A stretch of DNA of 64,000 bases, taken from assembly GCA_964016885.1 (NCBI GenBank), contig OZ024759.1, positions 28,768,001 through 28,832,000 on the forward strand. Direction: 5' to 3'. The notes under the pieces are model-generated. The model did no database searches. It saw only the letters and a program-made list of their open reading frames with translations, and had not been told where the DNA came from. Position 1 is the first letter of the stretch; each line of letters begins with the position of its first letter. Both the position numbers and the translations under genes were made by a program. Shown in pieces: positions 11,611 through 51,003 of the stretch. Origin of the DNA: Eledone cirrhosa. Its lineage: Eukaryota.

Positions 11611-11773
11611 GGAGTAAGTAAGACCCCGACGGCTGAGCCCAAGCCGTTTCGACGGCCAATTCTGTACTCAGCCGTCGGGGTCTTACTTACTCCTATTACC
11701 CACTCTACTACCCTAAGTATTGAGTACTTTGGTGCGTTATGGTCCACCTGGTTCCTTACCACTTTTCCCTCGC
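11611..11773 (+). mobile_element. Short (TA)n-embedded element with 5' fold-back (family B, copy 1)
   Basis: Arms 11611-11637 and 11667-11693; shared tail TATTACCCACTCTACTACCCTAAGTATTGAGTACTTTGGTGCGTTATGGTCCACCTGGTTCCTTACC. Confidence 0.85.
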
Positions 11774-11883
11774 TATATATATATATATATATATATTACA
11801 ATAAAGTGTTGATGATTAACAGTCGAACTAGTCTTAGTTGAATCGAAATCCCTAGTAGATCTTTTCCTTCTAAGGTTAGTGAC

Positions 11884-11992
11884 GACGAGGTTAACTTTGC
11901 CTTTCATCCTTACGGGGTCGATAAAATAAAGTACCAGTAATGTACTGGGATAATTGCTGGCCTGGTGCCAAAAGTAGAAACAATTATTATTA
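11884..11992 (+). mobile_element. SINE 3' half (Nin/Deu-like domain family)
   Basis: TTTGCCTTTCATCCTTACGGGGTCGATAAAATAAAGTACCAG...GTAGAAACAA(TTA)n, repeated about 10 times in the window. Confidence 0.85.
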
Positions 11993-12317
11993 GAAATTTC
12001 CTTTGAATTCTGCTTCTTACCCGTATTATGCCGAGTGTCAACCTAACAGCTGAGACAAATTTTGTATGACACACATTTTACAATCATACAAATGATACCA
12101 TAAGCGCATAAACAACAGTAATGTATTTGCAAGGTATTTAAATTGATAATGCCCTTCTTGGGACATTTTCTGGATCTCTTTCCAGGTATCAGGTCCAAAT
12201 ATTTTTCAGGTCCCTATTTTATCATTCTAAGTGCACCGACTATCACTGATATTTTACAGGCTTTAAGATGCCACATTTTCTCAATTTCAATTCTCACATC
12301 TTTATATTTACTGAGCT
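11993..12317 (-). pseudogene. 3' fragment of an R4/Dong-like non-LTR retrotransposon (end of the restriction-like endonuclease domain plus 3' UTR)
   Basis: Minus strand from 12315 translates LSKYKDVRIEIEKMWHLKACKISVIVGALRMIK*GPEKYLDLIPG; the 3' end abuts (TAA)n. Confidence 0.75.
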
Positions 12318-12321
12318 GTTA

Positions 12322-12512
12322 TTAGCAGTATCGGTAGAGCGTTGGACGTCATGCTTTCTAACATAGTTACGTCATTTTACGGTCTGAGTTCAATTCTCGT
12401 CGAGATTAACTTTGCCTTTCATCCTTACGGGGTCGATAAAATAAAGTACCAGTAATGTACTGGGTAATTGCTGGCCTTGTGCCAAAAGTAGAAACAATTA
12501 TTATTATTATTA
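12322..12512 (+). mobile_element. SINE (Nin/Deu-like family)
   Basis: GCAGTATCGGTAGAGCG head, GAGTTCAATTC B box, conserved body, TTA tail. Confidence 0.85.
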
Positions 12513-12872
12513 ACTTTTTTAGGATTCATTTGCAGAGGAAAATGAAGGTGGAGAGGGAAGTGCTACCTTCTAAGCAGTTGTTGAAAGACGAGGGAGAGAG
12601 GAGAGCATGGTTCGGGTGAATGGGCCTGTAGATAGGAGAGAGCACTTGCCCTGGTGGTCAGGTTGACTGTGGCTTTTTTGCGGGTTTTCTCTACGTGTGA
12701 CTCTCGGCAGTCACCCCCCTCCCCTATTGGGAAATTTACTTTGTTTGAATTTGTTTTTATATCACGTTATATGAACATTTTACAAGCTAAAACCCAAACT
12801 TTTCCAATCTTGTTCTATCTGTAACGTCCTTAATGTTTTCTTTATGTAAGTCCTGCATGGCCAATAAAGAAA
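12513..12872 (+). mobile_element. 3' end of a LINE (Tx1/L1-like), 5'-truncated
   Basis: Degraded frame NFFRIHLQRKMKVEREVLPSK, then a T-rich UTR ending CCTGCATGGCCAATAAAGAAA(TTA)n; a similar end occurs at 21273-21368. Confidence 0.55.
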
Positions 12873-13332
12873 TTATTATCAATATTATTATTATTATTAT
12901 TATTATTATTATTATTATTATTATTCACGGTTTGAGAAATACATCAAAGGATTTCCTTTCTTCCACCAAAAAGCATCAGGTACATCTTAGAAGACATACA
13001 TCATAATGTAGAAGGTATACAAATGTTTGTCTGTGAGAGAATTCCTTTAAGATATTTACAGAAGCTATTATTATTATTTTTTATTATCATCACCATCATC
13101 ACCATCATTATCATCCCCATCACCATTACGATCTCCATCATTATCATCATCATCATCACCACACTAGAAACTTCCTGACGGTAGCACATGTCTCATTGCA
13201 AATGTTGTCAGTGCACGTGAAAACCCCCTCATCAGCCCTCACGTTTTCCTCGCAATGCTGCTGCTGCTGCTACTACTACTACTACTACTACTGCTACTAC
13301 CACCACCACCACCACCAAGTACTGCCGAGTAC

Positions 13333-13486
13333 TTGAACTCAGAACGTAAAGGTAAGCTTTGCCTTTCGTCCTTACAGGGTCGATAAAATAAAGTAGCAGT
13401 AATGCACTGGGGTCGATTTAATCTACTTTCCCCTTCCCTGCAAATTGCTGGCCTTGTGCCAACTGTAGAAACAATTATTATGATTA
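13333..13486 (+). mobile_element. SINE fragment with an inverted 5' piece
   Basis: TTGAACTCAGAACGTAAAGG (reverse complement of the SINE head) is joined to a forward SINE body. Confidence 0.75.
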
Positions 13487-14689
13487 CAACAACAACAACA
13501 ACAACAGCGATAATATAGTTAAGACAGGAGATACATCAGGCTTTCCTGTCAAGTGACGTACAATGCACCTACAGCCCTCGGCAATACTATCAGATATGGC
13601 AGATATATAGAAGAAAAACAAAACTTTCATGCACACATACCCACACACACACACACGTACATACACACCCACACACACACAAATATACATGCCCACACAT
13701 AGACACACGCATGCATACATACCCCCACACACACACGTACATTCACACCCACACACACACACATATATATACATGCCCACACATACACAGATACACACGC
13801 ATGCACACACATAGACACACGCGTGCACACGCACAGTTAAACACACATACACACACATACAAAACACACAAACACATACATACATACACAGAAACACACA
13901 TACATATACATACAATCACATATATACTACAGATACACATACATACACACACATACTTAGTATTACTCCATCCGTTAACCCCAGCCCTCAAATCAGAGAT
14001 GTATAAAAAAGGAGAAAAGGGGGAGATAACCCCCATTACACCATTAACATGAAGAACAATCTTTACGAATAACGTAGAAAAACAACACAGAAACAAATCA
14101 TATACACCTTATATATACTGTATATACACCTTATATATATATACACCTTATATATATATACAGCTTATATATATATACACCTTATATATATATATATATA
14201 CACCTTATATATATATACACCTTATACACCTTATATACACCATGTATACATCTGTGATTGCACTCCAAATATATCTTATATACACATGTTATACACTCTA
14301 TATACACTTTATATACACCTGTGATTATACGTATATATTTTAAATACAACTGTGGTTCCACTCCGTATATATACCTTATATACATATATATACCTTATAT
14401 ATGTATATATATATATATATATATATACACCTTATATAACTATTATTAATCAGGACAACTGGTTATGGTTTTAACTGTTTAGTTAACCTGTTAGTTGGTT
14501 AATTCATTGGTTGGTTGTCTTCTGCCTTCCTCTCTTTCTCCCTCTCTTCTTTCTTCACTTCTTCCTTCCTCTCTTCCTTTCTCTTTTTATCCCTCTCTTC
14601 ATCTCTTCTTTATTTCTTCCTCTCTTTCTACAGTCCTTCCTTTCTTTCTGTGGCATTCCACATGGTTGTTACATAACAGAGAAACCTAT

Positions 14690-49450: not shown

Positions 49451-49894
49451 TGTGTGTGTTTCTGTGTTTGTGTGTGTATGTGTATGTGTGTATATATTTG
49501 CAAGGTAACCATACAATATATCACAAAATAGAATACAGACTCAAACACACACACACACATATATATATACACAGATACACCTACAGACTGAGCACACACA
49601 CACACACATATATATATATATATACACAGATACACCTACAGACTGAGCACACACACACACACATATATATATATATATATATAAATACATAGATACACTT
49701 ACATGCACACACATGCAATTACCGTATTACTTCTGCCTCTTTATATTCTGAGTTCAAACATATATACGTTATATATGTTTAAAACTTAGAAATCAATATA
49801 TATATATATATATATATATATATATATATATATATATATATATATATATATATATAAGAAAAGTATATACTTTCATCTGGCAGGAAGGTATACG

Positions 49895-49928
49895 CTGCTG
49901 ACTATAGCTAATAAGCTTGAAACTAGTA
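49895..49928 (+). ncRNA. Degenerate hammerhead-like motif
   Basis: CTGCTGA...AGCT-aata-AGCT-t-GAAA-CTAG-TA; core has A6C and there is no good stem I. Confidence 0.35.
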
Positions 49929-50191
49929 CATCGTTCCTTTGTCAGTGTTGAACAAAAAGGCAACGATGGTTGCTAAACACTGTACGGCTTAATTTGGGAT
50001 GTTTGTTTACAAACAAACCGAGCATTATAATAAATGTTCGGTAAATCCATACGTACATATATATATGTGTGTGCATGTATGTATATATATACATACTACT
50101 GTACGCCTGTATACATATATGTATGTACGTATACATACTTATATATATATATATATATATATATATATATATATATATATATAATAGAAAT

Positions 50192-50237
50192 GGCTTCTAC
50201 TAGAACTGTTTCATTCAGGAGAAATCAACAGGAAGCC
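50192..50237 (-). ncRNA. Hammerhead motif (family F) with one core change
   Basis: Minus strand reads GGCTTC-CTGTTGA-tTTCtcctGAAt-GAAAC-agttcta-GTA-GAAGCC; 6-bp stem I. Confidence 0.65.
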
Positions 50238-50329
50238 TTCACTTATATATATATATATATATATATATATATATATAGTGACAGAATGAAGAGTAACATG
50301 GTCGGCTGTACAACAAGGGGCTTTATTTC

Positions 50330-50444
50330 AAGTAGTAACAATTGTTTCATTGATCAGGTGAGTCTAAAGGCCGCTAATCACTCGAAGTTGCGTCACTCGA
50401 CCTCCAATACAGTGTTTACCTCTGATCAAATCCTCAGAAAACTT
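50330..50444 (-). ncRNA. Hammerhead motif with a long stem II
   Basis: Minus strand reads AAGTttt-CTGAGGA-t-TTGATCAG...CTGATCAA-t-GAAA-CAATTG-TT-actACTT; in a (TA)n-flanked island 50278-50450. Confidence 0.7.
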
Positions 50445-50500
50445 ATCCCATATATATATATATATATATATATATATATATATATATATATATATATATA

Positions 50501-50703
50501 GTAATAATAATAAATGTGAAGACCAAAATCCAAAGAGGGCTCGATAAGGATAAATATATATCAAATATATAGGAACCGTAGAGCAAATATTTATTAAAAT
50601 AACAGATTAAAGTCTGAGCAAAGAATCGCTGCTTTCACCCTTAACGGGATCTTCTGAGTTTCAGAAGATCCCGTTAAGATTAACTTTAATCTGTTATTTT
50701 AAT
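50501..50703. mobile_element. Family C element with a different fold-back
   Basis: Body as at 44011; inner hairpin CTTAACGGGATCTTCTGA-gtt-TCAGAAGATCCCGTTAAG and outer arm ACTTTAATCTGTTATTTTAAT. Confidence 0.85.
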
Positions 50704-50827
50704 ATATATATGTGTGTGTGTGTGTGTGTGTGTGTATATATATATATATATATATATATATATATATGTATGTGTGTGTGTGTATATATATATATATATA
50801 TATATATATATATATATATATATATAT

Positions 50828-51003
50828 GAAAAAGTATGACCCCGACGGCAGAGCTCAAGCCGTTTCGACGGCTATTTCTGTCGAAACAGCTTGAGCTCTG
50901 CCGTAGGGGTCATACATTTTCCTATTACCCACTCTACTACTGTAAGTATTGAGTACTCTGGTGCGTTATGGTCCATCTGGTTCCTTACCACAACTCCTTC
51001 GTT
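50828..51003 (+). mobile_element. Family B copy 3 with fold-back
   Basis: GTATGACCCCGACGGCAGAGCTCAAGCCGTTTCGAC / GTCGAAACAGCTTGAGCTCTGCCGTAGGGGTCATAC; same tail. Confidence 0.85.

Follow-up and report, generated by a model that had tools for sequence, protein, structure and literature searches.

Head-to-head hairpins of a miniature repeat family in Eledone cirrhosa have two fixed ends and may be products of twin priming

We analysed a window of 64,000 nucleotides from Eledone cirrhosa (GenBank assembly GCA_964016885.1, contig OZ024759.1, positions 28,768,001 to 28,832,000 of the forward strand), 57% of which is masked as simple or tandem repeat and in which (TA)n is very abundant. Our subject is a short repeat, here called family B, which is present in three full copies (11611-11772, 22831-23026 and 50828-51002; copies 1, 2 and 3), each of which folds back on itself. 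The direct part of copy 2 (22885-23026) serves as the ruler for all family B coordinates. These hairpins lie far above chance expectation: exact inverted 16-mers no more than 350 nt apart occur in 8 of the 145 unmasked segments of the window and in none of them in any of 100 mononucleotide shuffles. Seven of the eight short-range inverted matches fall in repeat elements; the remaining one (19548-19589) is microsatellite-like and was discarded as a hairpin.

The three copies have the same layout. An inverted, 5′-truncated arm is joined head to head to a direct arm, and only the direct arm continues through a tail of 77 nt. The inverted arm is tail-less and ends in all three cases at 22949, the TAT of CCTAT, against (TA)n, which flanks each copy on both sides. 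The family has two fixed 3′ ends, 22949 and 23026, with the tail between them. The junction between the arms, in contrast, differs in each copy. The direct arms begin at 22920, at about 22885-22888 and at 22904 in copies 1, 2 and 3, such that the head of the inverted arm extends beyond the direct arm by 31 bases in copy 1 and by 11 in copy 3, whereas copy 2 is a near-perfect palindrome whose direct arm is longer by about 3-4 nt. A preliminary description of this DNA, made from the sequence alone, had claimed three copies with a common tail and an inverted arm, a turn-around point that varies and an outer end that stays constant beside (TA)n, and all of this is borne out. Fragments had been placed at 6862, 16384 and 56591, and all three are real (6860-6892, 16391-16447 and 56591-56629), though the second starts at 16391 and is a piece of the tail. 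Direct partial tandems (pseudo-long terminal repeats, pLTRs) were not found among the family B copies of the window.

Evidence from outside the window comes from the literature and from public sequencing runs aligned to a family B reference of 144 bases. The family B end was matched in 16 of the 23 runs listed, and 4 of the 16 were aligned in detail, with 24,533 and 25,258 reads in two raw-read runs and 20,189 contigs in X1, while X4 with only 3 contigs contributes little. No RNA run is among the listed public runs that match family B, and these data have no bearing on expression. Loose ends of (TA)n behind 22949 were found in 3570 of the 24,533 and 3090 of the 25,258 reads as well as in 98 contigs. 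Since (TA)n thus directly follows 22949 in thousands of reads, the family as a whole has a fixed internal end, to which the two solo tail-less fragments also attest. Copies that are not inverted and keep their natural upstream sequence are frequent as well (1591 and 1653 reads).

The reads also contain joints between arms, of which we consider 15 of 20; a separate set of five rows with letters between the two sides was left unclassified. Twelve of the 15 listed joints are head to head: the start of one arm falls within 22888-22902, that of its partner within 22926-22988 (seven beyond 22949, four at 22943-22946 and one at 22926). The other three, a skip on the same strand and two joints of opposite strands that lie at 22949 or after it, were likewise left unclassified. 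The twelve junctions, with few read starts behind each, are all distinct and none equals a window junction, so that together with the three window copies 15 of 15 junction centres are different. For the joints 22895/22943 and 22902/22946, both read runs give a shorter side of 55 and 48 letters, respectively, which is the exact distance to 22949. The upstream-reaching arm therefore is tail-less in these two, and the overlap between the arms amounts to only 7 and 4 nt. Among the joints listed, there is no hotspot at 22929/22930, where a cut after the GUC is predicted (see below).

The arms of one copy are more alike than arms of different copies, a check that the preliminary description had called for. 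Over the 28 columns common to the six arms, there are 0, 1 and 3 differences within copies versus 4-7 across the 12 between-copy pairs, and the true pairing of arms is the lowest of the 15 possible ones (difference sum 4 vs 12-16), though with three copies this alone amounts only to p = 1/15. It had also been stated that variants specific to a copy are mirrored in its two arms. Both arms indeed carry the same alleles, but these alleles (22923 A>T, 22936 C>T/C>A, 22941 C>T/C>G and 22942 G>T) each occur in thousands of public reads. They are common polymorphisms of the family, and what the matching arms thus reveal is that they come from the same source subfamily, not that mutations private to a copy were mirrored. 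Furthermore, the arms of copy 3 are imperfect mirrors: with the edges counted, 5 of 47 columns differ. What does hold is that the arms are not inherited terminal inverted repeats (TIRs), but are likely made at each insertion, because the 3 window and 12 read junctions all differ and the arms of each copy belong to one subfamily.

With moderate confidence, we propose that the family B hairpins arise by twin priming at insertion, i.e., that two complementary DNAs (cDNAs) from one source are joined head to head, and that they likely are 5′-truncated ends of Penelope-like elements (PLEs). We infer an enzyme, an RNA intermediate, a single template and the following order of events. A PLE protein would cut both strands of a (TA)n target. 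Reverse transcription would be primed by one target end at 23026, where the tail ends, and by the other target end at the fixed internal TAT site (22949), 77 nt away. The internally primed cDNA would usually reach about 22888-22902, and the tail-primed cDNA would stop anywhere between the interior of the tail and this same region. The two heads would then be joined, either through microhomology of 0-5 nt or with some extra bases in between, and filled in. That both arms carry the alleles of one subfamily in all three copies, with several subfamilies being common in the reads, points to one RNA, or at least one source locus, from which both were likely copied. It is possible, though we hold this with less confidence, that the head-to-head inverted ends of PLEs come about through a dimeric enzyme for which both strands of the cut target serve as primers on a single RNA molecule, at two hard-wired sites.

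The geometry of the junctions leans to two primers. Four further hairpins, from three other families of the window, share the layout of family B (Table 1). In the six hairpins with a readable centre, the tail-less arm is the longer one in four (copies 1 and 3, and the family A hairpins at 44012-44176 with 15 nt and at 50502-50700 with about 3 nt), and the direct arm is longer in two (copy 2, and the element at 34237-34920 with about 105 nt); the element at 6398-6832 is not among the six. Independent truncation of two cDNAs that start from 23026 and 22949 accounts for both directions of asymmetry, and for solo tail-less ends, without a further step. The hairpins had originally been ascribed to events during integration, with self-primed second-strand synthesis as an example. 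Such a fold-back copies only what the tail-primed cDNA holds, and the inverted arm must therefore lie inside the direct arm. This is not the case in two of the three family B copies, in both family A hairpins and in the two read junctions resolved above, and the proposal thus fits poorly in this simple form.

Twin priming is said to have been described for L1 by Ostertag and Kazazian in 2001. There, the second target end reportedly primes internally and an inverted piece is joined head to head with a small overlap or gap near the second site, as we suggest for family B. L1 reportedly differs in that the internal site is variable and the first primer is poly(A), whereas family B has a fixed internal site, no poly(A) and an overlap of up to a whole arm.

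Self-priming might be retained in a modified form, in which the tail-primed cDNA folds at its own small hairpin near 22888-22902, copies back to the TAT and joins the other (TA)n end, the first arm being partly lost at resolution or later. The read consensus suggests by eye a short imperfect natural hairpin in this region, and every one of the three window copies and of the 12 head-to-head joints in the reads has one arm that starts at 22885-22902, even though this cluster may partly reflect that the reference begins at 22885. Matching arms would follow directly, and the near-perfect palindrome of copy 2, with its loop on the tail-bearing arm, is just what would be expected. However, in the four resolved cases the direct arm would additionally have to lose 31, 11, 48 and 44 nt, the few loop bases of the family A hairpin at 50502-50700 derive from the tail-less arm, and solo tail-less ends exist. 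We consider this course unlikely, though it deserves to be kept in mind. As a variant of twin priming, the two arms might stem from separate transcripts on a dimeric enzyme and be alike only because one locus supplied most transcripts. This would agree with head positions that are independent in both directions, with the predicted dimer of PMC11167929 and with one possible arm mismatch at a subfamily site in the hairpin at 50502-50700, but it is improbable given that both arms are of one subfamily in three of three family B copies, although several subfamilies are common.

Inheritance of a palindrome has to be considered, too. The centre of a palindrome is an unstable structure, and conversion can act between its arms, so that a master copy with a long palindrome might have given rise to daughters that lost their centres while their arms were homogenised by conversion or cruciform repair, a scenario that includes a TA-targeting fold-back element or a DNA element resembling a miniature inverted-repeat transposable element (MITE). 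Perfect-hairpin junctions could also hide in short reads. Yet no junction is common to any two of the 15, the repeat, unlike a TIR, does not reach the terminus on the tail side, copies without inversion that retain natural upstream sequence are frequent, and at least four families in one window display the same one-sided anatomy. Moreover, the arms of copy 3 have drifted apart (3/28), which indicates that conversion is not keeping the arms equal. This reading is largely refuted, and we regard it as very improbable. A TIR DNA transposon or MITE would end in inverted repeats on either side and have an internal part in common; this classification was rejected because the inner arm is followed by the 77-nt tail and the 15 centres all differ. 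A non-long terminal repeat retrozyme, defined by tandem units that each contain a complete type I hammerhead (bioRxiv 10.64898/2026.07.22.740005), was likewise rejected, since family B has neither a tandem nor a complete hammerhead.

Several observations weigh against twin priming by a PLE machinery. Copy 2 resembles a plain snap-back product, and partial loss of one arm after fold-back would give equal asymmetry. In the other 10 of the 12 head-to-head joints, the tail status of the upstream-reaching arm is not readable, and if tailed, they possibly are large-loop fold-backs. The joint list leans to non-overlapping arms, because long perfect hairpins probably are under-sampled in short reads and because many library molecules end at 22896 (7232 and 7377 ends in the two read runs), probably at a restriction cut. 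Short tail-less arms, besides, cannot be aligned. Three of the four joints at 22943-22946 fall where the alignments of a divergent subfamily also break; the clustering of direct-arm starts at these positions (p=0.007 by joints, 0.15 by distinct positions) was downgraded as support, as it is possibly an alignment-edge effect. The possible arm difference at 50502-50700 mentioned above also counts here, and the 77-nt tail is about twice the published 30-40 bp. As for the enzyme, a Pfam search of 85 short non-repetitive frames of the window gave four weak matches, all under the cut-off and none to a reverse transcriptase or GIY-YIG domain, and five exact-pattern scans of metagenome, viral and genome contig collections gave no family B locus, so that no PLE open reading frame (ORF) is linked to the family. 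Lastly, neither a ribozyme descriptor nor Rfam finds a hammerhead in family B.

On the latter point, family B does contain, read from its sequence, a candidate 3′ half of a hammerhead with C-GAAA-C and a 6-bp stem closed by GUC that bears a palindromic loop, as had been noted before. The CUGANGA half was suggested to have been replaced by the inversion. This claim is not supported by the natural, non-inverted upstream sequence, a 41-nt consensus obtained from loose ends before 22899 and before 22888, which agree in register over 11 letters (those before 22899 are the 1591 and 1653 reads given above, with agreement 0.75 and 0.70, and 110 contigs; the consensus is noisy). CTGANGA, which in a type I hammerhead lies directly 3′ of stem I and 5′ of stem II, is absent from these 41 nt and, by the descriptor search, from the window copies of family B. 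The 5′ core thus was not removed by the inversion, but is degenerate, lies further off or never existed. As far as the window copies and these 41 nt go, family B does not qualify as a type I hammerhead ribozyme. The natural upstream motif has no match in the window with up to 3 mismatches. Rfam at its gathering threshold gave no match in the whole window, and E-value scans of 6380-6900 and 22690-23030 gave sub-threshold matches only, mostly to microRNA models and none to a hammerhead. Folding of the direct arm with tail, of the tail alone and of four other pieces gave nothing above shuffles (z -0.99 to 1.49). The sequence that precedes GAAAC shows, on visual comparison only, a short likeness to the 3′ end of Naiad_Ovul, on which we do not rely.

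The connection to PLEs comes from the neighbouring families. Their elements have (TA)n on both sides and one arm with about 90-110 nt of extra 3′ sequence, and two of the three families carry canonical minimal hammerheads. A descriptor search (CTGANGA-GAAA-UH) found three sites in the window, +6732, -34399 and -27084, with stems I of 8, 4 and 5 bp; two have a stem I of at least 5 bp, compared to a mean of 0.03 and a maximum of 1 in shuffles. Since these neighbours combine the published layout of a PLE unit with hammerheads, the PLE machinery is the likely maker of family B, by analogy rather than homology. Family B works like a PLE end and is a putative member of the class.

In PLEs, inverted 5′-truncated copies, a one-sided tail of 30-40 bp and a bias for (TA)n are standard (PMC8557442), and minimal hammerheads are known from PLE ends, including opposite-strand pairs 100-700 bp apart (PMC4209133). 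The origin of inverted structures is left open in PMC8557442. Canonical PLE clades have a type I hammerhead in the pLTR, which is absent in Naiad and most Chlamys. The endonuclease-containing (EN+) PLEs of Adineta vaga (Pen2, Pen2a, Pen3a) have head-to-head inverted pLTRs with junction palindromes, which in 2013 were read as self-priming, with alternatives allowed (PMC3846280). The insertion unit of EN+ PLEs (PMC3846280; PMC8557442) resembles family B in its unequal head-to-head arms, the tail on one arm, the junction palindrome and the AT-rich target. The ORF of EN+ PLEs encodes a telomerase-related reverse transcriptase and a GIY-YIG endonuclease. Family B differs by having no linked ORF, units of less than 200 nt, a 77-nt instead of a 30-40 bp tail and no canonical hammerhead, and the geometry of its junctions speaks for two primers more than for self-priming as put forward in PMC3846280. 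With Naiad and Neptune (PMC8557442), family B shares a (TA)n target without readable target-site duplication, inverted truncated copies and an incomplete hammerhead core; Naiad_Ovul is marked HHR_half_core in the supplement. Octopus genomes contain Naiads (Naiad_Obim, Naiad_Ovul), but cephalopod Naiads are called old remnants (PMC8557442), whereas the arms of family B show hardly any differences. Visual comparison of the 3′ ends sets Naiad_Obim, Naiad_Ovul and Naiad_Omin apart from family B, and nine exact family B motifs had no match in the PMC8557442 supplement, where line breaks could hide one. For Octopus vulgaris, 31 recently active Penelope-like families are reported, and the repeat library of that study (PMC13282606) could already contain family B.

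The closest biochemical parallel concerns Poseidon of Anolis carolinensis (PAc), for which in vitro both target strands are cut and extended and two RNA start sites bound the tail, with a predicted dimer as the enzyme (PMC11167929). The two reverse-transcription starts bounding the tail, the cutting and extension of both strands and the AT-rich target are similar to what we propose for family B. PAc differs in that its starts have no target homology and lie in an AC-rich stem-loop, and in having a working hammerhead, whereas the internal end of family B has a 3-nt TAT match to (TA)n. Inverted insertions are not modelled in the consulted part of PMC11167929. We found no paper that applies twin priming to PLE inversions in a search that had subscription literature and Repbase outside its scope.

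Table 1. Family B features and elements of similar layout in the window (coordinates are positions of the window).
Feature	Position	Strand	Remarks
Copy 1, inverted tail-less arm	11611..11668	-	ruler 22889-22949; outer end on (TA)n; head 31 nt longer than direct arm
Copy 1, direct arm and tail	11667..11772	+	ruler 22920-23025; 2-nt junction overlap with inverted arm; ends on (TA)n
Copy 2, inverted tail-less arm	22831..22884	-	about ruler 22891-22949
Copy 2, direct arm	22885..22949	+	central 4-nt loop mostly direct-arm sequence (compared with copy 1 and read consensus)
Candidate hammerhead-like 3′ half	22906..22935	+	C-GAAA-C; 6-bp stem whose loop, GAGCTC, is palindromic; GUC followed by a G run; search for a CUGANGA partner negative
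Fixed internal end	22947..22949	+	TAT, microhomology with (TA)n; putative second reverse-transcription start
Tail	22950..23026	+	77 nt, direct arm only; folding unremarkable (z -0.13)
Copy 3, inverted tail-less arm	50828..50880	-	ruler 22893-22949; head 11 nt longer than direct arm
Copy 3, direct arm and tail	50880..51002	+	ruler 22904-23026
Solo tail-less fragment	6860..6892	-	ends on (TA)n
Tail fragment	16391..16447	-	ruler 22948-23004; fused to 3′ end of another repeat family
Solo tail-less fragment, second subfamily	56591..56645	+	ends in AT-rich sequence before (TA)n; subfamily recurs among read loose ends
Comparator family	6398..6832		tail of about 109 nt and arms of about 150 nt; the site at +6732 is a canonical minimal type I hammerhead with an 8-bp stem I
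Comparator	34237..34920		partial tandem and inverted truncated copy; hammerhead core at -34399; direct arm about 105 nt longer than inverted
Family A hairpin	44012..44176		tail-less arm 15 nt longer at head
Family A hairpin	50502..50700		tail-less arm about 3 nt longer at head; internal deletion
Family A solo end	22751..22805

Some further features of the window deserve mention. The element at 34237-34920 contains a partial tandem (103 nt at 98%) and meets (TA)n with two distinct 3′ ends that are separated by about 100 nt, and the head of its direct arm stops in the middle of a palindromic stem III. Hammerhead flanks related to the element at 6398-6832 are present at 27084 (-) and, decayed, near 22205 (22167-22215). 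Family A has a tail of about 90 nt and, by eye, a hammerhead-like stretch in which CAGAAGA replaces CTGANGA, for which there is no descriptor match. Two of its copies adjoin family B copies 2 and 3 on the upstream side, with a microsatellite between. The solo fragment at 6860-6892 is followed at 6893-6925 not by family B sequence but by another small hairpin, which has a T run, a C run and an A run. At 16357-16447, the family B tail is joined to the 3′ end of an abundant repeat resembling a short interspersed element (SINE), a fusion that suggests a template switch. Other copies of this SINE-like repeat lie at 11883-11991, 12321-12496, 16053-16263, 47305-47697, 51776-51945 and 60935-61083. About 194 copies of an 18-nt unit occupy 27376-31050 and contain a putatively coding open frame of 1148 codons on the + strand (SDTEKE-like repeat), and at 55000-55170 (-) there is a weak C2H2 zinc-finger match below the Pfam cut-off (E 0.0036), perhaps a gene fragment. 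A partial family B end was also seen in runs with several other organism codes and in one wastewater metagenome (X6-X16), which may be a lead on the spread of the family among species.

The layout of family B is ordinary for the PLE class, and the idea of self-priming is not new, as it has already been proposed for the head-to-head junctions of PLEs (PMC3846280). The value of the family lies in its junction geometry, which leans to two primers, and in the size of the natural data set. On a practical note, hairpins of this type can be mislabelled as MITEs or as microRNA precursors, in line with the sub-threshold microRNA matches in Rfam. The formation of tandem and inverted ends of PLEs is named as unsolved in PMC8557442. 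With less than 200 nt, tens of thousands of reads, subfamily markers in the arms and a fixed internal end, family B is suited to separating the two models by junction counts. If priming of both target strands on one RNA by a dimeric enzyme holds true, this abundant miniature family and its neighbours record thousands of such events at base resolution, and they could decide between self-priming and twin priming.

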